NCBI GenBank assembly: GCA_963422715.1
Contig: OY730475.1
Location: forward strand, 649,428-673,427
Direction: 5' to 3'
DNA length: 24,000 nt
From: Dehalococcoidia bacterium
GTDB lineage: Bacteria > Chloroflexota > Dehalococcoidia > Lucifugimonadales > Lucifugimonadaceae
The notes beneath the pieces were generated by a model. That model was not told where the DNA came from. It ran no database searches and saw nothing but the letters and a program-made list of their open reading frames with translations. Both the position numbers and the translations under genes were made by a program. Shown here in pieces: positions 1 through 24,000 of this stretch; position 1 is the first letter of the stretch, and every line of letters starts with the position of its first letter.

Positions 1-546
1 CCCCCTTTCTCTAAATCCGAGGCGCAGGCAGATGCGTCAGGCGGAATACTCTTAATCGCAGAAAGAACTGTGGCGGTCGGTGAAATCTTGGATACTGGGG
101 TGAGGGATGGCGATAAGTGCGTCATGAATCATGGATCACTTGAAGTCGAGGTTGAAGTATCTGTTGATGAGCCCTCGGCTGAGATCAGTTTTCGGTTGAC
201 TGATGATTGCAAGTTAGTCGTTGCTTCCAAGCAAAGGCATGCCTCCGATGCTGCATCGCATACACATCGGTCAATCATTAGCGCCGATGATTCGATTCAA
301 AGGTATGACGCGGAGGAAGCTAAGTCGGAATGGAGTGACGCTTTCGCAATCGATGCCGCCGCTACTTTCGTGAGATTCACTTACGATGAGACAAATAGTG
401 GGTTTTCATTCTATGGGTCGCCGGAAGAGGAGTGCGTCAAGTTTGGTTGGTGGAAAACCGAGCGATGTCGTATGGATAGTCAGTCACAAAGCTCATCCAG
501 CATTGAAGCCACGGCCTATGGAAGATTCAGCATCAAGGCTACTTGA
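1..546 (+). CDS. hypothetical protein, possibly truncated at the window edge
   Basis: The ORF-track frame 70..546 has no stop codon back to base 1, so the GTG at 70 may be internal. The product is acidic/Ser-rich with no motif I recognise. The call rests on ORF length only. Confidence 0.35.
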   Translation, partial: PPFSKSEAQADASGGILLIAERTVAVGEILDTGVRDGDKCVMNHGSLEVEVEVSVDEPSAEISFRLTDDCKLVVASKQRHASDAASHTHRSIISADDSIQRYDAEEAKSEWSDAFAIDAAATFVRFTYDETNSGFSFYGSPEEECVKFGWWKTERCRMDSQSQSSSSIEATAYGRFSIKAT

Positions 547-861
547 GGCTATCGTCATTCTCAGAAGCCGACATTCACCGCTAGACGATCAGGCAGAGGC
601 ACTGCAAAGTGCTGGTCAGATACGAATCGATTGGCAGTCCTCCATTTCACCTGTGATGGCGGCCTGCATAAAGCAGGATAGTGGAGAAAGGAGGCCCGAT
701 GGCTAAAGACGAACTTGAGCGCCGCGCCGATACGCCGTTCTAATAAAACAAAAAATGGCCCGTCAAGGCGCCTGTGTCCATATCACGGTCGTACCCGGCG
801 TGGCGCTCCTATGAAGATGTGATTGCTGTTAGTTTTACGGAGCGTTGCCGCGTATTGAAGT

Positions 862-1497
862 ATGCCCAAGCGTTACGAAATACATCTTTCTTGCCGAGGA
901 GATAATACGAAGATGGTACAAACCGTAAGTCAGATAGGAATAGGTGGCAAGTGGGGCAAATGGATGACGATTGTTGCCGGGGTGGTAAGCGCGGTAGTTT
1001 GGACCACGGTGGTTGTTGCGGATCATGCTGGCAGCGGGGCGGGACTGATCGACAGAGCGTTGATGTTTGAGCTCGCGTTCATCTGGGCGATTATATGGTT
1101 CATCGCAAATGCGATTCGGTTTCTGGAGGGGAAGAGACTAGCCGTTTTATCGCTGTTGCCCGCGGGAGTTGGGTTGGTTCTGTTTGGGATCGCACAGGGA
1201 TTCTTCGTGCAGACTCCAGAAGGCGATTGGTACCGGATGGCATTGGGAATCGCTCCAATCGCGCTGGGTCTTGCAGCTCTTTTGAGTGTGTTGCCGCATC
1301 CAATGCCGATTCAGATATGGCCACTGCACACCGGAAATTCAGAGATGATAACTAGAATCATCATCGATCCGATAGGCCTGACGCGACGAGACCCGCCTGC
1401 GATGGCTAGCCATCGCAGGCGGTGTTGCATTCGTATTGGCGATGCCAGTTTCGCCTACTGTGGTTCCTTTGGCAGTAGCGATAACGTGCGCAGTTAG
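862..1497 (+). CDS. hypothetical multi-pass membrane protein (hydrophobic part ends ~1300; frame appears to break near 1385-1395)
   Basis: Several hydrophobic helix-length segments (IVAGVVSAVVWTTVVVA, LAFIWAIIWFIANAI, LSLLPAGVGLVLFGIAQGFF, ALGIAPIALGLAALLSVL). The last ~60 codons turn Arg/Cys-rich and look non-native. The start is uncertain (ATG 862, 913 or 961). Confidence 0.5.
   Translation: MPKRYEIHLSCRGDNTKMVQTVSQIGIGGKWGKWMTIVAGVVSAVVWTTVVVADHAGSGAGLIDRALMFELAFIWAIIWFIANAIRFLEGKRLAVLSLLPAGVGLVLFGIAQGFFVQTPEGDWYRMALGIAPIALGLAALLSVLPHPMPIQIWPLHTGNSEMITRIIIDPIGLTRRDPPAMASHRRRCCIRIGDASFAYCGSFGSSDNVRS
1393..1422. repeat. 30-bp perfect palindrome ccgcctgcgatgg-ctag-ccatcgcaggcgg
   Basis: Read directly: 13-nt arms plus the self-complementary centre ctag. 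It lies exactly where hydrophobic coding switches from frame 1 to frame 2. Confidence 0.9.
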
Positions 1498-1687
1498 GTA
1501 CGCTGACACTTTTCAAGGGAGCGAGCGAGTGAGAGTGATGGGGCTGAGCTTTGTTGCGACCGTCTTAGCGGCGACTTTCTCAATCGGATTCATTGGTACA
1601 CCTGAGATTTGGATGGCAGCACCGGCGTTCATGTTGTTTCTTTTGTCGATAGCGCTGGCGATGTTCAGAAGCGCAAAGAAAGAATGA
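1436..1687 (+). CDS. small hydrophobic protein, or C-terminal continuation of the 862 gene in another frame
   Basis: The product has two helix-length hydrophobic segments (VVPLAVAITCAV; LSFVATVLAATFSIGFIG ... AAPAFMLFLLSIALAMF). The same frame is already hydrophobic upstream of the TTG start, back to 1382 (RLRWLAIAGGVAFVLA), where no start codon exists. Confidence 0.4.
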   Translation: MAMPVSPTVVPLAVAITCAVRYADTFQGSERVRVMGLSFVATVLAATFSIGFIGTPEIWMAAPAFMLFLLSIALAMFRSAKKE

Positions 1688-2221
1688 CCAGGCAATCTGA
1701 GTGTGCGAAACAAAGTCTCCCCCCCCCGTCCCAGATCACTGGATTTTGCGATTCCTGCCGTGGTAGAGCGAAATGATCTCCGCATAACGCCATAAAGCGC
1801 ATCGCAATCAATACCCTCGGCGCATCGCGGGGACATGAATGCTATCGCTTGCATCTCCTTCGGGCCAGAATCGCAGGTCTCAAAGAATCGGCAGTCAACG
1901 ACGATCGATGCAACCATATCAGAGTTTCATAGACCCATCAATCAGCCATCAATCCAGAGTCGGAACAGTTCTCTTTCATGGCGATCGCACCCATGTCTCC
2001 ATGCCGTTCTCATGGCAGCCCATGTTTTCTCAGCATTCAACGCTGATGGTTTCAGAAAGCGGAACGAATTAACACAACTATCGGTTTACGGCAGCGCAAT
2101 ATGAAATCACCTTGCGGCTCTGCTAAATTACTCTTAACAGCGTCATACCCTCCGAGAAAGAATCCACAACTAAGGAAACTATCTGCGACTCGCAAAGAGA
2201 TTGAAAACAGGAGCCACATCA

Positions 2222-2554: not shown

Positions 2555-3268
2555 ATGCCCCTCAAACCCGTAGCATCGGAAATCCTGCAAGGACTAAAGG
2601 CTTACGACTCCGCCACGGTTCAGAATGCTGCCATCTTGTTACGAGGATATATACCAGAGCATCTCGACTACTCGGGGCCGGAACTGTTGCCGTATCTGCA
2701 CGATCTCGAAGGCTCCGGCAAGCCGACTGTAGGCTACGCGCTCACATCCACTTGGACGCCGTTAAGTGAGCCCGCGTCGGAGCAAGAGCTGGGCAATCGC
2801 ATGGAATATATGGACTCGATCGCGAAGGCTGACGCGCCGGTGATAGTGGTTCAGCAAGATGTGGATATCCCGCCGCGGCGCGGCGCGATAATCGGCGACG
2901 GTATGGCATTCATGATGCGCGCGCTGGGAGCCGTAGGCGCAGTGGTGGACGGCAATGCACGTGACTTGTCCGGGATCGAGAACGCAGGATTATCGCTCTG
3001 GGCCACGGGACGCGTGCCCGGACATGGTCCGTTCAACATGATCGAGCACGATCTCCCCGTCACCGTCGCTGGGTTGCAGATTCATCCCGGCGACATCTTG
3101 GTGTGCGATGGCGATGGTGTTACACGAGTCCCTATCGACATCGCGGAAGACGTTCTTATGAAGTGCGCCGAGGTACGAGCCAAAGAGGGCGAGTCGCATC
3201 GCTACTTCAGCAATCCTGAATTCACTCTCACCGACTGGGAATCCTATAAGGCGCGAATGACACAGTAA
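2555..3268 (+). CDS. RraA-like / HMG-aldolase-family protein
   Basis: Carries the family signature GDGMAFMMRALGAVGAVVDGNARD and PGDILVCDGDGV. The length of 237 aa is typical. Confidence 0.8.
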   Translation: MPLKPVASEILQGLKAYDSATVQNAAILLRGYIPEHLDYSGPELLPYLHDLEGSGKPTVGYALTSTWTPLSEPASEQELGNRMEYMDSIAKADAPVIVVQQDVDIPPRRGAIIGDGMAFMMRALGAVGAVVDGNARDLSGIENAGLSLWATGRVPGHGPFNMIEHDLPVTVAGLQIHPGDILVCDGDGVTRVPIDIAEDVLMKCAEVRAKEGESHRYFSNPEFTLTDWESYKARMTQ

Positions 3269-3335: not shown

Positions 3336-4220
3336 CTACTTGAAATAGTCTTGCAAACATTTGGCTTCAGCTATGGATCTAAGACGTTGCAATCCTTCTA
3401 CTTCAATCTGACGCACACGTTCTCGTGTAATCCCGAATTTATCACCCAACTGTTGCAGAGTGAGAGATCTGTCGCAAGCGATGCCGTAACGCATACGAAT
3501 GATAGCGGCATTTCTTGAATGATCCAAATCGTTTATCAGTCGTATTATCTCTGACATCAAAGCTCTTGAAGACACTATTTCATCAACCGAATCGGCTAAT
3601 GGATCGCATAGCGTCTCTGATATAGGGCGTTCAACTTTGCATTCTAATGATTCGATGCTAACGAATTCGGTTTGACGCCAATTCAGATATTGTTGCGTCT
3701 CCTCAATGCCCAGCCCAGCGATAGTAGCGATTTCATGGATTGTCAACGGTGGGCTATCAGCTGAATCTCGCTCTCTGAAACCCCGATCTATCTTGTGCAC
3801 AATCTGCATAATGTTTTGTGGCAATCTGATGAGTCTGTGTTCGTAATTCAAGGATCTGCGCATTGTCTCGTAAATCCAAAGTATCGCGACATGTCGCAAC
3901 CACTTGCCCCGCCGTGGCTTGTAGCCATCGATGCAGTTGATCAATCCGATATTGCCCGCTTGCACCAGATCACCAATGGGGGCTGGCCAATGCTTCCGCT
4001 TCTTGGCTTCTCGCAACACTAGCCACAAGTGCGATTCGATCAATCGAGCTCGTGCGGTCATGTCGCCGGCTATGTGGAGCTCTACCTGTTCAATCTCTTC
4101 TAAGCGGTTTAGCTTTGGAATACGCTGAACTTCGTCTTCATAAAGTTGCAAGCCAAAAGATTCGAGATTCGGTGTCGATTCGCCTGATTCGGCATCATGA
4201 AGTGAAAAATCTACCCCCAT
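3336..4220 (-). CDS. RNA polymerase sigma-70 family factor (divergent region 2)
   Basis: Region 2-like DLVQAGNIGLINCIDGYKPRRG. Region 4.2 HTH LTLQQLGDKFGITRERVRQIEVEGLQRLR. Region 3-like LTIHEIATIAGLGIEE. The track start is TTG 4229; the first ATG is at 4220. Confidence 0.85.
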   Translation of the reverse strand: MGVDFSLHDAESGESTPNLESFGLQLYEDEVQRIPKLNRLEEIEQVELHIAGDMTARARLIESHLWLVLREAKKRKHWPAPIGDLVQAGNIGLINCIDGYKPRRGKWLRHVAILWIYETMRRSLNYEHRLIRLPQNIMQIVHKIDRGFRERDSADSPPLTIHEIATIAGLGIEETQQYLNWRQTEFVSIESLECKVERPISETLCDPLADSVDEIVSSRALMSEIIRLINDLDHSRNAAIIRMRYGIACDRSLTLQQLGDKFGITRERVRQIEVEGLQRLRSIAEAKCLQDYFK

Positions 4221-10224: not shown

Positions 10225-10300
10225 GCCCCGTTGGTGCAGCGGTTAGCACGTCGGCCTTTCAAGCCGGAGATCACGGGTTCGAATCCCGTACGGGGTACCA
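10225..10300 (+). tRNA. tRNA-Glu (anticodon UUC)
   Basis: Hand-folded cloverleaf. Acceptor GCCCCGU/ACGGGGU (G1-U72 wobble). D arm GUGC-AGCGGUUA-GCAC. Anticodon arm UCGGC-CUUUCAA-GCCGG with UUC at 10258..10260. 5-nt variable loop. T arm ACGGG-UUCGAAU-CCCGU. A73 and an encoded CCA. Total 76 nt. Confidence 0.9.
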
Positions 10301-10577: not shown

Positions 10578-10591
10578 AGTGATTGAAGATC

Positions 10592-11749
10592 ATGCGCCGT
10601 GAGATGCCCAGCCGATACGAAACTGTGAACTCCGCGGACGAGAGTTTCAGAGCCTTTATACCGCTACCGCCTTCACCGCCGTTGTCGACAGATAGCGAGT
10701 TGTTGCACCTTCTCGCAGATGCCATGCTGGCGCTGGGACGTCTGGACACGGCATCTTCCCAACTGCCGGATCAGTCGCTTCTCATTTACTCTTATATCCG
10801 CAAGGAAGCGGTGCTCTCATCGCAGATAGAAGGCACACAGTCTTCAATTTCAGATCTGTTGAGGTACGAACTGACGGGAATGCCGGGCGGCTTACGAGAT
10901 GACGTTGTAGAAGTGTCTAACTACGTTGCGGCGATGAATCATGGATTGCAAAGATTAGGCGAAGATTTTCCGCTATCGAATCGGTTGCTAAGAGAACTCC
11001 ATGAAAAACTGCTATCAAATGGCCGCGGCAGTGATAAGACGCCAGGTGAGTTCAGACGCTCGCAAGTATGGATCGGCAGTTCACGTCCCAGCGACGCTAA
11101 TTTCGTGCCGCCGCCTCACATCTATATTGACGATAGCATGGGGGAATTGGAACTCTTTCTACATGCTAAGGATGACGGTATACCGCCGCTGGTGCGCGCC
11201 GGATTGGCTCACGTTCAGTTCGAGACCATCCATCCCTTTCTCGACGGGAATGGGCGTATCGGGCGATTGTTGATTACATTCATGCTCTGCTCGGCCGGGA
11301 TCTTGCGACACCCGACTCTCTATCTGAGCCTCTACTTCAAACGACATCGATCCAGATACTATGAGTTGTTGAACGAGGTGCGGGCGACGGGTGATTGGGA
11401 AGCGTGGCTCAGATTCTTCTTGACGGGCGTGCGCGATACGGCAGAGAACGCTTACACCACATCACAGCGCATCTTTAACCTATTTGAGGAGCACGGCGCC
11501 AGCATTGAGCAGATAGGCACCCGTCGAGGATCTGTAGCTAGAGCGCATGAGGCTTTGAAAAAGATGCCGATCGCCTCGATAGCCGAGTTGAGCAAGCTTG
11601 CAGACATTACCTACCCTACGGTGTCATCAGCGATTGAGACGATGGTAGAGATGGGTATCGCGCAGGAGGTAACTGGCGGGCGAACCAATCGCCTGTTCGT
11701 GTATGACCGTTACATTGCGATACTGAACGAGGGCACAGAGATCGAGTGA
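10592..11749 (+). CDS. Fic family protein (Fic_N + Fic core + C-terminal winged-helix-like region)
   Basis: Fic motif HPFLDGNGRIGR at 11231..11266. Inhibitory-helix motif SSQIEG (SxxxEG) at 10817..10834. The C-terminal ~70 aa look wHTH-like. The track start is TTG 10583; the first ATG is 10592. Confidence 0.9.
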   Translation: MRREMPSRYETVNSADESFRAFIPLPPSPPLSTDSELLHLLADAMLALGRLDTASSQLPDQSLLIYSYIRKEAVLSSQIEGTQSSISDLLRYELTGMPGGLRDDVVEVSNYVAAMNHGLQRLGEDFPLSNRLLRELHEKLLSNGRGSDKTPGEFRRSQVWIGSSRPSDANFVPPPHIYIDDSMGELELFLHAKDDGIPPLVRAGLAHVQFETIHPFLDGNGRIGRLLITFMLCSAGILRHPTLYLSLYFKRHRSRYYELLNEVRATGDWEAWLRFFLTGVRDTAENAYTTSQRIFNLFEEHGASIEQIGTRRGSVARAHEALKKMPIASIAELSKLADITYPTVSSAIETMVEMGIAQEVTGGRTNRLFVYDRYIAILNEGTEIE

Positions 11750-14586: not shown

Positions 14587-15552
14587 TCATCTGGCGTTGG
14601 CGGTCGTAGTAGACAGAATTTCAAAGCGTACTGAGGAATCACGGTACCTCTGTATCTCGCTGAGCACTGCGCTCACCACATTCACCGCCACCGCGTTGCC
14701 AGCCTGTTTGCGCGTCTGGGAATCTGAGCACACAATCTTGAAATGCTCCGGGAAGCCTTGCAACCTTAGCATCTCACGCGGCGTCAAACGTCTTACGCCG
14801 TCTACCAGCAGGTAGTTGTATGAAGCGTTGGCGCGGAGCGCGCAGGAAAAAGGGTACGAGGAGATGTGTCCGCCCTTGTTTTCGTGCCAGATCGACGGCG
14901 AGGCGCTAGGTGTATGGGCATCCAGTCGTTTGCGGCGGATGTGTTCAGATACGTAGTGCTTGGTGGGTGCGTCTTGCTCTAACACTCTGCTCAGCGACTT
15001 CATCTTCTTACTTTTGAGGCGATGCCATTCGATTTGCGCGCCGATGCGGTTAGCCACTATAAATATCCTTTCGCGTTTTTGGGGCAATCCGAATTCCAAT
15101 GCATTCAGCACTCGGTGATCCACGGCGTACCCAAGCGATTCAAGCGATTTCAGGATGGTTTTAAGAGTCATGCCACCGTCGTTGGAGATGAGTTGCTTAA
15201 CGTTCTCCAGCACTATCCATCTCGGCCGTTTGGCGTGTATGATGCGTTCAATTTCGAAGAAAAGAGTGCCGCGGCGGTCTCTCATACCGTTCATCTTGCC
15301 GATGATGCTGAAGGGCTGGCACGGAAAACCTGCCAAAAGGACGTCGTGGTCTGGTATCTCAGATGCATCGACATCTCGGATGTCGCCTGTAGGCTCTTCA
15401 CCGAAGTTGGCAGCGTAAGCGCGTCGGCAGTGCGCATCAATCTCACTAGAGAATAAACATTGCCAGCCAATAGATTCAGCGGCTATCCTGAACCCTCCGA
15501 TGCCAGCGAATAGGTCTATGAAACTGAGCGGCGAGAATACTGATGGCGGCAT
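14587..15552 (-). CDS. dcm: DNA (cytosine-5)-methyltransferase
   Basis: Canonical C5-MTase motifs: I FIDLFAGIGGF, IV GFPCQPFS, VI ENVKQL, VIII QKRERIFIV, X GNAVAVNV. It is short (321 aa) with a small target-recognition region. Confidence 0.95.
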   Translation of the reverse strand: MPPSVFSPLSFIDLFAGIGGFRIAAESIGWQCLFSSEIDAHCRRAYAANFGEEPTGDIRDVDASEIPDHDVLLAGFPCQPFSIIGKMNGMRDRRGTLFFEIERIIHAKRPRWIVLENVKQLISNDGGMTLKTILKSLESLGYAVDHRVLNALEFGLPQKRERIFIVANRIGAQIEWHRLKSKKMKSLSRVLEQDAPTKHYVSEHIRRKRLDAHTPSASPSIWHENKGGHISSYPFSCALRANASYNYLLVDGVRRLTPREMLRLQGFPEHFKIVCSDSQTRKQAGNAVAVNVVSAVLSEIQRYRDSSVRFEILSTTTANAR

Positions 15553-15650: not shown

Positions 15651-16097
15651 ATGTCTGAATCTGCAAATATCTCGGTGCCAGCCGCGACTGATGAGACGAC
15701 TCGCAAGTCGATGCAGTCTAATCGCCGAGCTGACACTAAGCCTGAAGTTCGGCTGCGCAGTTTGTTGCATCGCGCTGGTCTAAGATTCCGAAAGGATCGT
15801 TATATTCGGCTATCGGAGCGCGGCGTGAAAGTTGATGTGGTGTTTCCAGCCGCGCGCCTGGCGGTTTTCATGGATGGATGCTTCTGGCACCGTTGCCCCG
15901 AACATGCGACTATGCCGGCTAGCAATCGGAACTATTGGCGAGCGAAGTTCCAACGCAACATTGACCGCGATGATCGGCACAACCGCGAATTGGGCAAGCT
16001 GGGATGGATGGTAGTGAGAATCTGGGAGCATGAGGTGCGAGACGATGATCTGGCAGCGCATTCGGTCGCGCGCATCAGAGCAATAGTGAAGCGGTAA
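15651..16097 (+). CDS. vsr: very short patch repair endonuclease
   Basis: TKPEVRLRSLLHRAGLRFR, VDVVFPAARLAVFMDGCFWHRCPEH and NYWRAKFQRNIDRDDRHNRELGKLGWMVVRIWEHE align with the E. coli Vsr signature as I remember it. Confidence 0.93.
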   Translation: MSESANISVPAATDETTRKSMQSNRRADTKPEVRLRSLLHRAGLRFRKDRYIRLSERGVKVDVVFPAARLAVFMDGCFWHRCPEHATMPASNRNYWRAKFQRNIDRDDRHNRELGKLGWMVVRIWEHEVRDDDLAAHSVARIRAIVKR

Positions 16098-16207
16098 TAT
16101 GCATGAAGCAGCGATGTCTAGCATTGAAAATCTGTTGCTCGATGGCAACACAGCAGTGTGTGCTTCATGCCAGGCGTTTTGATCAATGAAGCTTGGAGGT
16201 AAGATTG

Positions 16208-16861
16208 ATGCGAGAAACTGAGCTAGTTGCGATACTAGAAACGGCCTATACCGGTGCGGTGTACGATGCCATGCGAGAACTCGATCTTCCAGACGGCATC
16301 TTGCCGCACGATATTCGCCCGTTAGATCCAGATAGCAAACTTATCGGACGGGTATGGACCTGTCGCGGCAACATGATGGATGGAGTGTCGCAAGATGATT
16401 CGCTGCTATCTTGGACCGGCATGTTGAGCGCGGCTCCGATCGGTTCGGTGGTGATTTGTCAGCCGAACGATTCCACGATCGCGCATATGGGCGAGCTGTC
16501 GGCGGAGACGCTGAAGTTTCGCGGCGTAAAGGGATATATCGTAGATGGTGGAAATCGCGACACTGATTTCATCTTGCGTCTCGGCTTCCCGGTATTCTGC
16601 CGATATCTCACGCCGGCCGACATCGTGTCGCGTTGGGTGGTTGACGCTATGGGCGATCCGATAATGATCGGCGACGTGAGAATTGAGAGCGGAGATTACG
16701 TGATCGCAGACCGTGACGGTGTCGTGATCGTTCCTCGCGACGGAGCATCCGCGGTAGCTAGACGCGTGCACGAAGTGATGAACACGGAGAATGAGTTACG
16801 GTCGATGATCTTGAAAGGCATGGAGCCGCAAAAGGCATATCTCAAATACCGTCGCTTTTGA
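16208..16861 (+). CDS. RraA-like / HMG-aldolase-family protein (second paralogue)
   Basis: GELSAETLKFRGVKGYIVDGGNRD and SGDYVIADRDGVVIVP. GGAGG at 16195..16199 lies 8 nt upstream of ATG 16208. The track start at 16193 is a TTG. Confidence 0.8.
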   Translation: MRETELVAILETAYTGAVYDAMRELDLPDGILPHDIRPLDPDSKLIGRVWTCRGNMMDGVSQDDSLLSWTGMLSAAPIGSVVICQPNDSTIAHMGELSAETLKFRGVKGYIVDGGNRDTDFILRLGFPVFCRYLTPADIVSRWVVDAMGDPIMIGDVRIESGDYVIADRDGVVIVPRDGASAVARRVHEVMNTENELRSMILKGMEPQKAYLKYRRF

Positions 16862-17046: not shown

Positions 17047-20000
17047 ATGTTGGAGAACGAGATCATAGTCCGCGGCGCTCGCGAACACAATCTCCAAGGC
17101 GTTGATGTTCGGATCCCGCGCGACCAGCTGGTAGTTGTAACCGGGGTTTCCGGGTCCGGCAAGAGCAGTTTGGCGTTCGACACCATCTACGCGGAGGGAC
17201 AACGCCGATATGTAGAGAGTCTCTCGGCATACGCACGTCAATTCCTGGGGCGGATGGAGAAGCCCGATGTCGATCACATCGAAGGGCTGAGCCCTTCCAT
17301 ATCGATCGATCAGAAGGGGGTTTCTCGCAATCCACGCTCCACAGTGGGCACGGTGACCGAGATCTACGACTATCTGCGTCTGCTATTCGCGCGGGCCGGA
17401 CGTCCGCATTGTCGCAATTGCAAACGTCCCGTAGAGCGCCAATCCGTTCAGCAGATCGTCGATTCGATTCTAGGTCTGGACGAAGGCTCTCGACTCTTGC
17501 TGCTCGCGCCTCTGGTAACGCACATGAAGGGCGAACACACTGCGATCTTCAATAATGCTCACCGTGAAGGTTTCGTCCGTGCGCGTGTAGATGGTGAAGT
17601 GCGCGAACTCACCGATGAGATAAAGCTTAATAAGAACCAATGGCACAACATCGAGGTCGTTGTAGATCGCATCATCATTCGTCCCAGCACGGATCGCGAG
17701 CGATTGACAGAATCGGTCGAGACCGCGTTGAAACTGGCTGGCGGAGTACTCACTGTCTCGGTTCTGAATCCTTCAGAACAGCTGCTAAAGGAGCTCTCTT
17801 CAGGAGCGCGTAGCGGCGCCTCGGAGCGAAGGCTGAAGGGTCGCCGGCGGCGCAAAACGAAAACGCCGCGAGATGAAGCGCGCGACCTCATCTATTCGGA
17901 GCATTTCGCATGCCCCTCGTGCGACATATCGATGTCTGAGCTTGAGCCGCGCGATTTCTCCTTCAACACCCCCTACGGAGCCTGCCCCGATTGTACCGGA
18001 CTGGGATTCAGCATGGAGATTGATCCCGACTTAGTGGTTCCTGACAAGTCGCTGACGCTGTCGGATGGAGCAGTCGCGCCTTGGCGCCAGAAGGGCGCGA
18101 GTTCGGCATGGGCTGATTCAGCGATGCGGACTCTCCAAGAGCATTTTGACGTGCCTCTAGACGTCTCCATGCGCGAAATGGACTCCGATCATTTGAAACT
18201 GGTGTTGTACGGGGCCGGCAGTCGGCGTGTAAAGATGACACACATCACTCAAAAGGGCGATGCTTACACCTGGATGGGACGTGTCGAGGGCGTGATATCG
18301 AATCTGGAACGTAGATATTCCCAGACAGAATCCGAGAACGTGCGCGCCGAGATCGAGCGTTATATGGCCCAGCGCCCATGCAACGCCTGTAACGGCGATA
18401 GATTGAAACCCGACGCCCTCGCAGTAACACTCATCGGCATGAACATCGTGCAAGTAACTAGACAATCGGTAGAACATGCGCTCAAATGGATCTCCGCTTG
18501 CCGCAATGGTGCTTGGGACGAAGAAACAACTGCTATCCAAGAGACGATGACGAATCGGGAACTGGCGATAGCAGATCAGATATTCAAGGAGATCGAAGCG
18601 CGTCTGGGATTCCTTTCCCGAGTCGGGCTTGACTATCTGACACTCGACCGTTCGGCGGGCACTCTTTCCGGCGGCGAGGGGCAAAGGATCCGATTGGCGA
18701 CGCAGATCGGATCCGGTCTGATGGGGGTGCTGTACGTCTGTGACGAGCCATCGGTAGGGCTTCATCCGCACGATGGCGACCGCTTGATTGCGACGCTGAA
18801 GAGTTTGCGCGATGTCGGCAACACGGTTCTGATAGTGGAGCATGATGAAGCCGTCATGCGCGCCGCGGATCATATCGTAGACCTCGGGCCGGGCGCCGGC
18901 GAACATGGCGGTAATATAGTTGCCCAAGGCGACATAGACGCTATCGCTTCAGCTGATGATTCGTTGACCGGCGCTTATCTCAGCGGACGAAAATCTATCG
19001 CTACCCCGCGCGAACGTCGTAAGAGCGGGCAAGATGCCATCCGTGTCCTCGGCGCTGCGGCTAACAACTTGAAAGATATAGATATCAACATTCCTCTCGG
19101 CGTGTTCGTCTGTGTAACGGGAGTCTCCGGTTCTGGCAAGAGCACACTGGTGAACGAGATCATACTGAAACGCTTGGCGCAACACTTCTATCGCGCTAAA
19201 GATCGCCCGGGAAAGCACCACGAAGTAACAGGGTTAGAGCTGATCGACAAGGTGATCAACATCGATCAATCGCCGATCGGGCGCACTCCGCGTTCTAACC
19301 CGGCGACCTACACCAAGATGTTCGACGCGGTGCGTCAGCTATTCGCCTCGCTCCCAGAATCGAAGGCTCGTGGGTACACCCCCGGACGGTTCTCATTCAA
19401 CGTGCGCGGGGGACGGTGCGAGCCTTGTTCTGGCGCCGGATATACCCAGATAGAGATGCAGTTCCTGCCCGACGTGACAGTGCCCTGCGACGTGTGCAAC
19501 GGCGCGCGCTACAACCGTGAGGCGCTGGAGATTCGGTTCAAAGGCAATTCGATCTCCGACGTTTTGAATATGACTGTTAGCGAGGCGCAACAGGTTTTTA
19601 AGAATATTCCCGCAGTGTCGAACAAGCTGCAGACGCTATCGGATGTGGGGCTTGGGTATATACGATTGGGTCAGCCAGCAACCACTCTATCGGGTGGCGA
19701 AGCGCAACGAATAAAACTGTCGGCGGAGCTATCTAAGCGCGGCACCGGCAAGACGCTCTATATCCTAGATGAACCCACTACCGGGCTTTCCTTCGAAGAT
19801 GCTTCAAGGTTGCTGGCGGTGTTGCATCGCCTGGTTGATACTGGCAATACAGTGTTACTCATTGAGCATCATCTTGATTTGATCAAGAATGCCGATTGGC
19901 TGATAGACCTCGGTCCGGGCGCCGGGGATGCCGGCGGTGAACTGGTGGCGGAGGGAACTCCGGAGTTCATGGCATCTGTAGAACGATCCTTTACCGGCAC

Positions 20001-20277
20001 ATATCTGCGCGATTCAGCAGGTATCGTGCCTGATGCTAACGCGCCGGGATCAGTGGAAATATCCAACGCCAACTTCAACGGGGCAGTGAAAATGAGATCC
20101 GGATTGAACCAAGACGATCTCAAACTGTCTGAAAGCCTAGACGGAACCGCGCGCGATCTCACACGCGCCGCTAGCAGGAACGGCGCTGATCCATCTGTGG
20201 CGACAGAAGTCAATGGCTCCTTGGGTATGAAACCCAGCCGTAAACGTAGCGCCAAGCGTTCCGGATCGCGACGTTGA
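17047..20277 (+). CDS. uvrA: excinuclease ABC subunit A
   Basis: Two ABC ATPase modules (GVSGSGKSSL/T twice; LSGGEGQR/LSGGEAQR signatures; Walker B YVCDEPS/YILDEPT). Zn-module cysteines CPSC...CPDC and CEPC...CDVC. Non-canonical basic insertion and C-terminal tail (see findings). Confidence 0.97.
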   Translation: MLENEIIVRGAREHNLQGVDVRIPRDQLVVVTGVSGSGKSSLAFDTIYAEGQRRYVESLSAYARQFLGRMEKPDVDHIEGLSPSISIDQKGVSRNPRSTVGTVTEIYDYLRLLFARAGRPHCRNCKRPVERQSVQQIVDSILGLDEGSRLLLLAPLVTHMKGEHTAIFNNAHREGFVRARVDGEVRELTDEIKLNKNQWHNIEVVVDRIIIRPSTDRERLTESVETALKLAGGVLTVSVLNPSEQLLKELSSGARSGASERRLKGRRRRKTKTPRDEARDLIYSEHFACPSCDISMSELEPRDFSFNTPYGACPDCTGLGFSMEIDPDLVVPDKSLTLSDGAVAPWRQKGASSAWADSAMRTLQEHFDVPLDVSMREMDSDHLKLVLYGAGSRRVKMTHITQKGDAYTWMGRVEGVISNLERRYSQTESENVRAEIERYMAQRPCNACNGDRLKPDALAVTLIGMNIVQVTRQSVEHALKWISACRNGAWDEETTAIQETMTNRELAIADQIFKEIEARLGFLSRVGLDYLTLDRSAGTLSGGEGQRIRLATQIGSGLMGVLYVCDEPSVGLHPHDGDRLIATLKSLRDVGNTVLIVEHDEAVMRAADHIVDLGPGAGEHGGNIVAQGDIDAIASADDSLTGAYLSGRKSIATPRERRKSGQDAIRVLGAAANNLKDIDINIPLGVFVCVTGVSGSGKSTLVNEIILKRLAQHFYRAKDRPGKHHEVTGLELIDKVINIDQSPIGRTPRSNPATYTKMFDAVRQLFASLPESKARGYTPGRFSFNVRGGRCEPCSGAGYTQIEMQFLPDVTVPCDVCNGARYNREALEIRFKGNSISDVLNMTVSEAQQVFKNIPAVSNKLQTLSDVGLGYIRLGQPATTLSGGEAQRIKLSAELSKRGTGKTLYILDEPTTGLSFEDASRLLAVLHRLVDTGNTVLLIEHHLDLIKNADWLIDLGPGAGDAGGELVAEGTPEFMASVERSFTGTYLRDSAGIVPDANAPGSVEISNANFNGAVKMRSGLNQDDLKLSESLDGTARDLTRAASRNGADPSVATEVNGSLGMKPSRKRSAKRSGSRR

Positions 20278-20804
20278 TGGCGCAAGATGGCAGAGGCAGA
20301 TCATCGCTTTCGTCACCGCCGTTGCACGTCCAAGACGGACTGTTCGGCAACTCCTGCTTCGGTTGCGGCGCCTGGAACCGCCGTGGACTAAACATAAAAT
20401 CTCGCTGGGAAGGCGACTGGTCGATCTGCGAGTTCACCCCGCAGCCGCATCATGCCGCAATGCCTGCTGATATTGTGAATGGCGGCATCATCGCCGCAGT
20501 GATCGACTGCCACTGCGTTTGCACCGCGATAGCAGACGCTTATCGCAGAGCCGATCGATACGCCGGCGACGGCAAGCTTCCGCTGCTCTGGTACGCCACC
20601 GCTTCCCTCAACATCAACTATCGCCGTCCGACGCCCCTGATGGGTATATTCACGGTGCGCGCTAAGGTGATTTCGGTACGTGGGAGACGGACTACACTGT
20701 CGGCAGAGCTATTGTCTCACGAGAACGAGCTCACGTGCGATGCGGAAGTGGTAGCAGTAGAAGTACCGGATGAATGGGCACGTAAAGAGGGATTGTTTGG
20801 GTAG
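20277..20804 (+). CDS. hotdog-fold thioesterase (PaaI-like)
   Basis: CFGCGAWNRRGLNIK...VNGGIIAAVIDCH resembles PaaI/4HBT-type thioesterases. ATG 20277 overlaps the uvrA TGA (20275..20277) as TGATG. The track start at 20274 is a TTG. Confidence 0.7.
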   Translation: MAQDGRGRSSLSSPPLHVQDGLFGNSCFGCGAWNRRGLNIKSRWEGDWSICEFTPQPHHAAMPADIVNGGIIAAVIDCHCVCTAIADAYRRADRYAGDGKLPLLWYATASLNINYRRPTPLMGIFTVRAKVISVRGRRTTLSAELLSHENELTCDAEVVAVEVPDEWARKEGLFG

Positions 20805-20843
20805 GGATGGCACATGCTGTAAATCTGGGATTGGGTTTTGCAA

Positions 20844-21326
20844 ATGGAATGGCAAGATATTACAGACGATTTGATTCTAGAGATGCTCCAATCGCCTAAA
20901 CGAGTAACGGATGGGCTATCACTTCCGAAAGACACTAAGCAGAATTTTTCTCAATTCTGCAAACTTGAAGACGCGGATCAACGTTTATTCAGAGTGGTTG
21001 TCAGGCAGAATTTGCTTAAGCGAAGTGATTTTTCATGCATGTTGATTCTTACCTCACCGGTGACGAAAGAGTTGCATCTTGCTAGGTACAACGGAAATAC
21101 TCACCCGCATACCAACAAGCTTGAAAGAGACAGATTCCAGAATCAGTTCCATAAACACCAGACTACTGAAAGGTACATCAAGAGAGGTTTCAGACCCGAT
21201 GGATTCGCATTACCAACAGATGATTACAACGATCTGCACGGTGCACTGAGACAATTATTTAAAGACTGCAATATCAGCTCTGATGCCAACGATTGGGATC
21301 TAAGCCGTCAAATGAGACTGACTTGA
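20844..21326 (+). CDS. hypothetical protein with His-rich motif (no family assigned)
   Basis: Clean ORF in the AT-richer region. Motif block LHLARYNGNTHPHTNKLERDRFQNQFHKHQTTERY at 21072..21176. It is followed 8 nt later by the next gene on the same strand. Confidence 0.55.
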   Translation: MEWQDITDDLILEMLQSPKRVTDGLSLPKDTKQNFSQFCKLEDADQRLFRVVVRQNLLKRSDFSCMLILTSPVTKELHLARYNGNTHPHTNKLERDRFQNQFHKHQTTERYIKRGFRPDGFALPTDDYNDLHGALRQLFKDCNISSDANDWDLSRQMRLT

Positions 21327-21334
21327 GGGAGACA

Positions 21335-22168
21335 ATGCACTTTATGGATACAAAATTGGCTGCACTAAATGAAGCATTGCACAGCCAACTTCGCGACTTA
21401 GTTCACATCACGTCGCATCCGGACGACGGCGAATTATCGGTCAACACGCCATGGACGTTTGACGATGGCGATGGATTCCAAATATACGTGCGCCATATCG
21501 GTGAGAGTATCCGTCTAACTGATTTGGCTCATACCTACATGCAATTGTCATATGAGATAAACATTGATACGCTGGAAAACAGTGAAACTAGACGCGCTTT
21601 GTTACAGCGAGCACTCGACGAACACAATATCGTAGACAAAAACGGCGAACTGTGTACCGAGGTGAGATTAGATTCGATCGGGGAAGGCATCTTTAGGATG
21701 ACGCGCGCGATCGAGGCTGTTTACGCCTTGCGTCATCATTCACTGAATCGGACCAGGAATCAAGCCCGTAGCACATTTATCGATGACTTGGAGCGTGACC
21801 TGCGAAACGAATTCCGCGATGCGGGGTTTGAGACTAACTTCGCCCCTCTGAAATCGAAAAAGGCGTCGTATTACAAGGCTGACTTCAAGTTAGACACGGC
21901 AGATCGTGAAGTGCCTGCATTGATATTCGGTGTGCATAACAGCAACAAAGCGCGGTTGACATCAATCAGCTTGTATGAGTTCATCCTACAAGAACTCAAA
22001 TTCAGAGACATAGTGGTGGTTCCAGATCGCGATCAGATAGGAAGGGCTGATTACGAGCGATTGGATGAAATATCAACCGATGTCATCTCTCGGAGCGAAC
22101 TGAACGTAAATCTCGGCAAGGCGATTAGAGAACGGATCTCTGCTCATACTTTAGCTTTAGGCCGTTGA
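21335..22168 (+). CDS. hypothetical protein, DUF1828/DUF1829-like two-domain architecture (assignment from memory)
   Basis: N-terminal half: WTFDDGDGFQIYVRHIGESIRLTDLAHTYMQL...RRALLQRALDEHNI...GELCTEV...LTRAIEAVYAL fits my recollection of DUF1828. The C-terminal half (YYKADFKLD...PALIFGVHNSNKARLTSISLYEF) fits DUF1829. A purine-rich GAGGGAGA precedes ATG 21335. Confidence 0.55.
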   Translation: MHFMDTKLAALNEALHSQLRDLVHITSHPDDGELSVNTPWTFDDGDGFQIYVRHIGESIRLTDLAHTYMQLSYEINIDTLENSETRRALLQRALDEHNIVDKNGELCTEVRLDSIGEGIFRMTRAIEAVYALRHHSLNRTRNQARSTFIDDLERDLRNEFRDAGFETNFAPLKSKKASYYKADFKLDTADREVPALIFGVHNSNKARLTSISLYEFILQELKFRDIVVVPDRDQIGRADYERLDEISTDVISRSELNVNLGKAIRERISAHTLALGR

Positions 22169-22244
22169 CAGCGCGATTTCATCGCAACTAGTGCCATGCT
22201 ATCTTAAGTGTTATTCTTTCACGTTCTCAATAGAGTCTCGCCAG

Positions 22245-23519
22245 TTAAGTGAGTTCGTAATCCACTTCAATTTCGAATTTAGGCGCTTCAATCTCAGCAT
22301 TGTTTAACCAATCAATTATAAATAGATTGACTGCATCATTGAATTCATCTATAGCACCGATTCGATATCTGGGGAATCCGTCATAATTACCGCACTTCAG
22401 TTCCGGAGCATCGAATACAAGTTGAGACCGATCTGCAGTAGCCGTAATTAGAAATTTTATTAGCTTTACATCATTTCCAAATACGACTAGCTGCACTTCG
22501 AGTCCGTATTCTAGAGTTGGAGTGCCGGCGTATCGCCTGATGCGCTCAATATTGCGTAAACCATTAGCCAACCAATGAACTACTGCATTTAGATACAGCA
22601 CCTTTTCTACAGGCCTACCTTTTGCGAATCCATTCAACACTTCCAATACGCCATCTGACCATAGAGTTTCTCTATCGATAGAAAAAGAATCTCTATCGTA
22701 GATGAATTTTGTTCCGCGTAGAACCGGGATATAAGTTCTATTAATGTTAATCAACAGAGATGGAATCGGGTATACAGGATTCGGATTATTCTTGTACCAA
22801 GCGCGTAGATCAAGATTTTCAGGAGTAATATCACGATTCCCGTGCACATGCCCTAGATCCAGCTCGTCTACCGGAACGAACGTCATCCGGAAACAGAGGC
22901 CGTCATCGCGTTTCGACTTCAAATCACTGATGAACCGATTGAAATCAAGTTTACGCGTTTCGTAGACCCTGTTCATCGCCTCTAATCGGTTAGCAGACCT
23001 AAATGTCATATCCTGTATCTCCCGCATATCCATCGGCACCGATTCGGAACCGCGACGGCGATAACACTGGTTGTCTGCCTTGCTTCTATGTGGCGCACGC
23101 GTAGAACGCGGCACATCAAGCGCTACGACACCTGAACCGTTGCCATCCGTTACTATGCCGGCAGTCTGCATTCTCAGCAACGGCGGCTCAATCGAATCAC
23201 CGCAGATGCGCTCAATACGTCTCGCCAGTTCAGCACAATCCGCAATCGGCACTATTTCCGCGGCGACATCTGGTTCGCCATCATCCTCTTGCACTCCCAA
23301 GAAGATGCGTCCTCCATACCCGTTCGCGAATGCCACGATCTCCTTGAGGATAGCTTTCTTGGCATCTTTCGTTAACTTATTGCTGTCTGATCCTTTGCTT
23401 GATGAAAGTCCACGCTTGAACTCGACGTTCTCGCCTTCACGAATCTTGTGTTCGACCAACATGCAGATGTCATCGGCATTCAGCTCGTTTACAGGTTTTG
23501 TCAGTGCCGGAATAGTCAT
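22245..23519 (-). CDS. AlbA_2 (Schlafen-type) domain protein with uncharacterised C-terminal domain
   Basis: The N-terminal ~165 aa carry the AlbA_2 signature: E..VEFKRGL, AILKEIVAFANGYGGRIFLGVQEDDGE, and CYRRRGSESVPM at the domain end. Residues ~170-424 match nothing I recognise. Confidence 0.72.
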   Translation of the reverse strand: MTIPALTKPVNELNADDICMLVEHKIREGENVEFKRGLSSSKGSDSNKLTKDAKKAILKEIVAFANGYGGRIFLGVQEDDGEPDVAAEIVPIADCAELARRIERICGDSIEPPLLRMQTAGIVTDGNGSGVVALDVPRSTRAPHRSKADNQCYRRRGSESVPMDMREIQDMTFRSANRLEAMNRVYETRKLDFNRFISDLKSKRDDGLCFRMTFVPVDELDLGHVHGNRDITPENLDLRAWYKNNPNPVYPIPSLLININRTYIPVLRGTKFIYDRDSFSIDRETLWSDGVLEVLNGFAKGRPVEKVLYLNAVVHWLANGLRNIERIRRYAGTPTLEYGLEVQLVVFGNDVKLIKFLITATADRSQLVFDAPELKCGNYDGFPRYRIGAIDEFNDAVNLFIIDWLNNAEIEAPKFEIEVDYELT

Positions 23520-23621
23520 AAATGCGGAGAACTTGCTACGAGTATTTGATTGGCGATGAGGCTACACGCTCAATGCGAACGCAAACGGACATGTTCATGA
23601 TTTCTTTGGCGGTTGCATCTT

Positions 23622-23679
23622 GGAGATTTACTCACTTCTCCAGATCCTTAGGACTGTTCAATTTGCCGCCTGGTGGTTT
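23622..23679. repeat. direct repeat copy 1 (58 bp)
   Basis: 54/58 identical to 23932..23989 (offset exactly 310 bp). Mismatches at 23651, 23657, 23671 and 23674. Confidence 0.9.
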
Positions 23680-23868
23680 ACTGCTCTTGATCCATGCCTC
23701 CGGTTTCTGAGGGACTTTAGGCGGAGCAGAAGACTTACGTGTAAGCACACGACCATAAGATCTAAGTATCTTCGTTAGTTCCTCTCCTGATAAAGTATCA
23801 TTCTGTTCATTTTCAGGCAATCTATATCTCCATTCATAGTGTAATTCAACAGAATCATAGCATATCAT
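23632..23868 (-). CDS. small hypothetical protein (78 aa) with Lys/Pro-rich C-terminus
   Basis: The ORF is co-oriented with and upstream of the AlbA_2 gene. Its C-terminal 19 codons are conserved in a second copy 310 bp upstream, with third-position changes that keep the minus frame open, whereas the plus frame gains a stop. Confidence 0.4.
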   Translation of the reverse strand: MICYDSVELHYEWRYRLPENEQNDTLSGEELTKILRSYGRVLTRKSSAPPKVPQKPEAWIKSSKPPGGKLNSPKDLEK

Positions 23869-23931
23869 ATACGGAAGTAACTCCCCATCCTATTGTATCT
23901 TGAGCATTATTCTCTGAAGCGGCAGGATTTG

Positions 23932-23989
23932 GGAGATTTACTCACTTCTCCAGATCCTTATGACTGCTCAATTTGCCGCCCGGCGGTTT
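23932..23989. repeat. direct repeat copy 2 (58 bp)
   Basis: See copy 1. Identity includes 10 nt beyond the minus-strand stop codon. Confidence 0.9.
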
Positions 23990-24000
23990 GTTAAGCCATG
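23942..24000 (-). CDS. 3' end of a paralogous small gene (runs off the window)
   Basis: The minus frame reads ...WLNKPPGGKLSSHKDLEK-stop, parallel to ...WIKSSKPPGGKLNSPKDLEK-stop of the 78-aa ORF. The stop codon is at 23942..23944. Confidence 0.3.
   Translation of the reverse strand, partial: WLNKPPGGKLSSHKDLEK

Follow-up and report, generated by a model that had tools for sequence, protein, structure and literature searches.

What might two closely spaced genes be doing towards the end of a 24,000-nucleotide stretch of DNA from a Dehalococcoidia bacterium (contig OY730475.1; this whole stretch is termed the window below)? Comparison with related sequences identifies the pair as a divergent member of the DUF6978 + DUF1828 candidate type, which PADLOC lists as the candidate defense system PDC-M24. 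The reading that we favor, with slightly more confidence than doubt, is that of a horizontally acquired, autonomous cassette with a putative role in anti-phage defense or superinfection exclusion. The features on which the argument depends are as follows.

20844..21326, + strand: gene 1, 160 amino acids (aa), DUF6978-family, PDC-M24A-like, phrog_27326, from the list of open reading frames (ORFs), the phrog match and the family profile.

21072..21176, + strand: His/Asn block of gene 1, residues 77-111 (L77..Y111), LHLARYNGNTHPHTN-x11-FHKHQTTERY, with conservation measured over 56 and 84 sequences.

21323..21346, + strand: gene junction, comprising the TGA at 21324-21326, GAGGGAGA at 21325-21332 and the start candidates TTG 21323, ATG 21335 and ATG 21344.

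21335..22168, + strand: gene 2, 277 aa, DUF1828, PDC-M24B, phrog_5059, from Pfam, PADLOC and PHROG matches.

21446..21718, + strand: DUF1828 domain of gene 2, residues 38-128, from the Pfam match and invariant residues.

21752..22165, + strand: C-terminal domain of gene 2, approximately residues 140-277, from conserved residues; not DUF1829 by hidden Markov model (HMM).

Both genes are real, far beyond chance, because gene 1 has homologues in 642 representative clusters at E ≤ 1e-3 (273 at E ≤ 1e-10) in an exhaustive HMMER scan, and gene 2 matches Pfam DUF1828 (PF08861) over residues 38-128 with E 6.4e-17 and 62.1 bits against a gathering cut-off of 22. The preliminary description of this DNA, made from its letters, had placed the gene 1 stop at 21324..21326, a gene 2 start at ATG 21335, a purine-rich stretch overlapping the stop and a His/Asn block at 21072..21176. 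All of these are present in the raw sequence, and the block maps there exactly. The list of ORFs and the raw sequence also allow gene 1 to be read from TTG 20838 (20838..21326, +) as an alternative start; ATG 20844, giving 160 aa, is the more likely start because the N-termini of the homologues align there. The two genes are separated in the window by 8 nt on the same strand, if gene 2 begins at ATG 21335. Its start is uncertain, with three candidates. ATG 21344 is where the N-termini of the gene 2 homologues align, and a start at TTG 21323 would create a TTGA overlap, the junction typical of the family.

The strongest property of the cassette is the association of its two genes. A scan of one genome per species yielded 129 relatives of gene 1, from which 80 loci were kept. 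Gene 2 lies directly downstream of gene 1 on the same strand in all 79 of the testable genome loci, the contig of the 80th ending too early, and it is likewise directly downstream in 28 of the 28 IMG/VR viral contigs that carry gene 1. Adjacency thus holds in 107 of 107 testable loci. Junctions were scored in 107 cases, the window and 106 other loci: in 73 the genes overlap, 60 of them by 4 nt, in a further 32 they are 0-20 nt apart and in two the distance is larger. In four relatives looked up in metagenomes, at five places, the pair was intact each time and the flanks were unrelated. Searching in reverse from gene 2 in metagenomes, gene 1 was found upstream in 66 of 73 testable loci. Taken together, the loci show two genes that are almost never separated and, judged by their junctions, are translationally coupled. 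This bears out the earlier expectation of a co-transcribed, translationally linked operon, conserved as neighbors elsewhere.

Of the seven exceptions in the reverse search, one (L184) has a decayed gene 1 and three (L134, L139 and L156) belong to a single lineage in which gene 2 is solo; the others are L135, L187 and L123. The last of these has a gene for an Abi family protein (417..1361; PDB 8vz6, E 1.9e-45) directly upstream of a gene 2 homologue (1389..2174), with a gap of 27 nt, so that the DUF1828 protein may pair with alternative effectors. In the testable loci gene 1 is never seen without gene 2, whereas gene 2 is sometimes solo or has another partner. This asymmetry is that expected of a toxic effector and its regulator. 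In two Dehalococcoidia loci (L055 5329..5826 and L075 5446..5955) the gene downstream of the DUF6978 gene encodes only some 165 aa, with a weak match to the gene 2 profile (E ~1e-10); either a truncated variant or a long-read frameshift would account for it.

The same asymmetry would suit a selfish toxin-antitoxin-like addiction module that stabilizes islands, prophages and restriction-modification (R-M) cassettes and has no direct anti-phage role. Other features in keeping with such a module are the compactness of the two-gene operon, the overlap between its stop and start codons, and a patchy, horizontal distribution in mobile low-GC DNA. However, no known toxin or antitoxin family is matched in Pfam, NCBIfam or PADLOC, and a DNA-binding antitoxin domain is not detectable in gene 2. 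Plasmids commonly carry addiction modules, and yet no homologue of gene 1 was found among the 72,556 plasmids of PLSDB. We therefore regard an addiction module as unlikely.

Relatives are found, between unrelated flanks, in Verrucomicrobiota, Planctomycetota, Chloroflexota, Spirochaetia, Acidobacteriota, Bacteroidota, Proteobacteria, Bacillota and Thermotogae. Orthologues in Pseudomonas phage 5399 are 38% (gene 1) and 31% (gene 2) identical to those of the window and overlap by 4 nt. The comparison shows a cassette that moves between phyla and into temperate phages. Word-indexed searches with single proteins returned only the query, and the relatives needed exhaustive HMMER; a single-protein search found no viral contigs with gene 1, and these were recovered with narrower alignments.

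To which family does gene 1 belong? It matches its own family profile with E 8.7e-51 and phrog_27326 with E 3.6e-32, and in almost all of the representative clusters the homologue is about 160 aa long. Some homologues are longer, and domain fusions were considered; their N-terminal extensions look like miscalled starts. Among 56 aligned relatives 44 match DUF6978 (PF22398) at E ≤ 1 and 22 match PDC-M24A, as does the Pseudomonas phage orthologue (E 1.2e-8). The public names of relatives in NCBI and UniRef are 'DUF6978 family protein' and 'DUF1828 domain-containing protein'. Gene 1 is thus clearly homologous to the DUF6978 family though it falls below the PF22398 gathering score, and it is placed in DUF6978/PDC-M24A by family, because its aligned relatives match, and not by a direct match.

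The likeness of the pair to PDC-M24 extends to its organization. In both, the first protein is about 160 aa long and the second, adjacent on the same strand, is a DUF1828 protein of some 260-290 aa. Gene 2 of the window matches the PDC-M24B models PDLC04539 (E 1.2e-12) and PDLC04540 (E 4.5e-10), and the Pseudomonas phage orthologues match both PDC-M24A and PDC-M24B. The difference lies in gene 1 of the window, which is too divergent for the PDC-M24A models; gene 2 passes its Pfam gathering score, whereas gene 1 does not. Membership of PDC-M24 in itself gives no mechanism.

Gene 2 also matches phrog_5059 (E 1e-19), and DUF1828 is matched by 40 of 40 of its homologues. P39, D44-G45-D46, D63, G104, F148 and I211 are invariant, and Y180, D183, P194, R207 and R242 are conserved at 93% or above. 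The preliminary description had suggested a two-domain DUF1828/DUF1829 protein. Its DUF1828 half is upheld by the Pfam scan, whereas DUF1829 (PF08862) has no HMM match in gene 2 of the window at E ≤ 1 or in the 40 homologues at E ≤ 0.1. The protein resembles DUF1828-DUF1829 proteins in having an N-terminal DUF1828 and a second domain of about 140 aa, but the latter has no DUF1829 match, so that it represents either a different module or a very divergent one. With gene 2, PDB sequence and profile searches gave noise, apart from a marginal match of the C-terminal domain to Csx1-Crn2 (E 0.0095), the only PDB profile match. This spans the boundary between the end of the CARF domain and the helix-turn-helix, and was rejected as evidence. 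A second DUF1828-like ORF (3366..4118, -; E 2e-9 with the gene 2 profile) is found in locus L044, divergent from a canonical pair and beside an MmeI-type R-M gene.

The most conserved part of gene 1 is the His/Asn block, in keeping with the importance that had been attached to it. Among 84 sequences R81, H89, N91, H103, H105, T108 and Y111 within the block are invariant, as are K19 and A122 outside it. Conservation is at least 92% for N83, G84, H87, E94, E109 and R110 in the block and for R54, F63 and S64 outside, H87 itself standing at 92%. An AlphaFold2 model made with a multiple sequence alignment of 45 sequences has a mean predicted local distance difference test score (pLDDT) of 90.8 and a predicted template modeling score (pTM) of 0.86; a single-sequence model was unusable (pLDDT 43). 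In the model an N-terminal helix is followed by a five-stranded antiparallel meander, three short strands (89-91, 96-98 and 103-106), a helix at 109-113, a further strand and a long helix. H89 and N91 lie on the first of the short strands, and H103 and H105 on the third. Alternate residues of a beta-strand face the same side, and therefore H87/H89/N91 and H103/H105 could form a single cluster. Together with four conserved basic residues, the block plausibly constitutes a putative metal- or phosphate-binding catalytic center. A preprint on methicillin-resistant Staphylococcus aureus (MRSA) likewise describes DUF6978 as having the look of a metal- or phosphate-binding catalytic center (10.64898/2026.05.15.725322).

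Does this site belong to a known class of enzyme? The preliminary description compared it to a His-Me finger, and gene 1 would then be an HNH-type (beta-beta-alpha-metal) DNA nuclease with a DUF1828/DUF1829 sensor. The conservation of H87, H89, N91, H103 and H105 is in keeping with that view, since His-Me/HNH nucleases also have an invariant His/Asn cluster. The three short strands followed by a helix in the model are superficially beta-beta-alpha-like, and the conserved basic residues would suit nucleic acid binding. The details do not agree, however. No HNH-type Pfam family is matched by gene 1 or its 56 relatives at E ≤ 1. In the model N91 is placed two residues past H89, and not across a hairpin, a spacing that is atypical for His-Me, and the second pair of histidines is borne by a strand and not a helix. 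E109 is the only well-conserved acidic residue of the helix, and it varies across the wider family. No DUF1829 sensor is detected in gene 2. Finally, a Foldseek search of the model against the PDB gave nothing at E ≤ 1e-3, with a best E of 0.45 and TM scores of at most 0.28, and none of the 50 best matches is a His-Me, HIT or PD-(D/E)xK protein, bearing in mind that a local beta-beta-alpha motif of 30 residues could escape a global search. Profile, fold and motif spacing thus all fail to support a His-Me finger nuclease, which we consider very unlikely.

The HPHTN sequence of gene 1 resembles by eye what we take to be the GalT-type H-x-H-x-Q motif (HIT/GalT HxHxQ). As with His-Me/HNH, gene 1 has no profile or fold match to HIT/GalT, and the spacing and the secondary-structure placement of its residues are atypical. 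PDB sequence and profile searches with gene 1 gave noise. The BFVD database provided one significant match to the model, an uncharacterized siphovirus protein (E 1.8e-4, TM 0.55). The predicted fold of gene 1, modeled with confidence and matching no solved structure, is therefore apparently novel.

The surroundings of the pair in other genomes provide a second line of evidence on its role. R-M neighbors were scored with five seed proteins, and 24 of the 80 genome loci have an R-M gene within 5 kb of the pair. In five loci (L012, L016, L018, L042 and L062) the pair is enclosed on the same strand by a type III mod gene and a res gene. In L082 res is directly downstream of the pair, the upstream contig being short, and two N6_Mtase/HSDR_N genes enclose the pair in L054 and L085. 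R-M functions predominate among the immediate neighbors. The 117 flanking proteins include members of N6_N4_Mtase (8), ResIII (6), N6_Mtase (4), DUF1156 (3), HSDR_N_2 (3) and GmrSD_N (2), methylase and ResIII being the commonest families; MmeI and a TOTE primase are also among the flanking proteins. Clustering of the neighbors revealed no third conserved gene across the loci. In the viral contigs a different neighbor appears: 13 of the 28 have a cI-like repressor upstream, on the same strand. Pseudomonas phage 5399 has cI, one 84-aa ORF and then the pair, all on the same strand. The cassette thus inserts preferentially inside or beside R-M systems and behind prophage repressor genes.

The location of the pair within mod/res and N6_Mtase/HSDR_N loci matches the pattern of 'guilt by embedding', a concept based on defense genes embedded in R-M systems (bioRxiv 10.1101/2024.01.29.577857). 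There is a likeness to PrrC-type genes embedded in R-M operons, since the pair is also found between type III mod and res on the same strand. It differs in having no ABC-ATPase or anticodon-nuclease domain, and most of its copies are not embedded. These locations might suggest a role for the cassette as an accessory to, or guard of, R-M systems: it would either monitor the R-M complex or be held latent by it, firing when a phage anti-restriction protein disables restriction, or else regulate the expression or specificity of R-M. The same-strand insertions, the prevalence of methylase and ResIII neighbors and the published precedent for embedding all point in that direction. However, in most loci no R-M gene adjoins the pair, the window, L002-L006 and the 28 viral contigs being among them, and therefore the cassette must work without a specific R-M partner. 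Moreover, the neighboring R-M systems vary in type (type III, MmeI, type IIG-like and DUF1156). A dedicated R-M guard is accordingly improbable in our view.

In its position near the repressor in phage 5399 and in 13 of the 28 viral contigs, the two-gene module parallels the rexAB-type prophage exclusion operons of lambda. The parallel is positional, as RexA and RexB have no sequence or fold relation to the pair. Host-protecting exclusion genes of the lambda rexAB type sit on the repressor (lysogenic) side of transcription. Could the cassette instead serve the phage or mobile element that carries it, in anti-defense, lysogeny or metabolism, with the R-M neighborhood reflecting shared integration hotspots? 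Its occurrence in temperate Pseudomonas phages and 28 IMG/VR contigs, and the existence of PHROG families for both proteins, would fit. Yet in prophages the pair sits on the lysogenic side of transcription, most copies lie in chromosomes away from phage genes, and hotspots by themselves hardly account for insertion between mod and res on the same strand. We judge such a phage-serving role to be highly improbable.

How would a defense cassette of this kind work? We propose that the small DUF6978 protein would be the effector, a metal-dependent (or His-catalyzed) phosphoesterase or nuclease. H87/H89/N91 and H103/H105, on neighboring strands, would make up its active site, surrounded by the conserved basic residues K19, R54, R81 and R110, as would be apt for a phosphate-bearing substrate. 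The role of the two-domain DUF1828 protein would be to bind the effector, restrain or activate it, and release it on a cue from infection, with the result that phage or cell nucleic acid, or a nucleotide, would be degraded. We assign the roles of effector and regulator in this sense because of the asymmetry of pairing, the conserved polar and histidine site of gene 1, and the Abi gene that takes its place in L123. The sensor/effector layout suggested previously thus stands insofar as it fits the genomic contexts and the PDC-M24 models; the class of nuclease (HNH) and the DUF1829 half do not.

Several points weigh against the cassette being a defense system of this type. Gene 1 of the window itself has no match in Pfam, NCBIfam or PADLOC, PF22398 and PDC-M24A at E ≤ 1 included. 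Its enzymatic nature is deduced from the pattern of conservation, since it matches no known nuclease or hydrolase fold or profile in Pfam, PDB sequence or Foldseek searches. The acidic residues of gene 2 (D44-G-D46, D63 and D183) are conserved, and gene 2 could itself be an enzyme. About 70% of the genome loci have no R-M neighbor of the five seed types, and housekeeping genes make up many of the flanks. The PDC-x systems are unpublished, unvalidated bioinformatic candidates, another PDC-M system gave no defense when assayed, and a literature search on DUF6978, DUF1828, DUF1829 and PDC-M24 found no functional study.

A bolder proposal, which we hold as tentative and rather doubtful, is that DUF6978 founds a new fold of His-based, metal-dependent nuclease or phosphoesterase. 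Together with DUF1828, its obligate partner, it would form a widespread abortive-infection or second-line immune module, used for superinfection exclusion in temperate phages and as a backup inside type III and type IIG R-M operons. If a defensive role is correct, the near-obligate pairing and the R-M-embedded and repressor-linked positions would sharpen the case for one catalogued defense candidate. The effector would have a confidently predicted fold unlike solved structures, and its conserved His/Asn site would offer clear targets for mutation. Activity, if shown, would bring a new enzyme fold into the immune repertoire, and would give a function to two DUF families present in temperate Pseudomonas phages as well as in at least nine bacterial phyla.

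Within the window the pair has a distinctive setting, to which two further features belong.

20805..24000, no strand: low-GC (guanine + cytosine) island, beginning exactly at the upstream edge of the pair and holding the pair and the AlbA_2 gene.

22245..23519, - strand: AlbA_2 gene, 424 aa, with an N-terminal Schlafen/AlbA_2 domain (PF04326, E 1.8e-16), convergent with the pair.

Upstream of the pair are the housekeeping gene uvrA and a hotdog thioesterase gene. The GC content drops from ~0.58 to 0.43 at the edge of the cassette and remains low through the AlbA_2 gene to the end of the window. Because it falls exactly at that edge and stays low, the composition indicates that the pair opens a horizontally acquired island next to uvrA. 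The AlbA_2 protein has a weak match to phrog_12156 'DNA helicase' and no PDB sequence match. It was considered as a partner of the family, and is not conserved beside the pair elsewhere, so that we regard it as context. Scans for promoters and terminators in the window were uninformative.

Beyond the AlbA_2 gene there is a direct repeat of 71 nt (23609..23679 and 23919..23989; 87% identity, spacing 310 nt), which overlaps the 3' end of a 78-aa ORF (23632..23868, -). The repeat suggests tandem paralogous small genes running off the end of the window. A HicA-like identity for the 78-aa ORF was considered and is not supported.

On the other side of the pair, the UvrA-like ORF (17047..20277, 1076 aa) is interspersed with low-complexity basic insertions and ends in a long C-terminal tail rich in Ser, Arg and Lys; its stop and the start of the thioesterase gene (20274..20804) overlap. 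Further upstream a C-5 cytosine DNA methylase (PF00145, E 1e-86; 14587..15552, -) is divergent from a Vsr very-short-patch mismatch endonuclease (15651..16097, +; PDB 1cw0, E 3e-15). The two form a Dcm-Vsr-type pair with no obvious restriction gene. A tRNA-Glu(UUC) gene (10225..10300) is followed by a Fic/DOC-family gene (Fic_N + Fic; 10583..11749) in a region of slightly lower GC content that may be a small tRNA-linked island. Lastly, two RraA-like/aldolase paralogues (PF03737) are located 13 kb apart, at 2555..3268 and 16193..16861.

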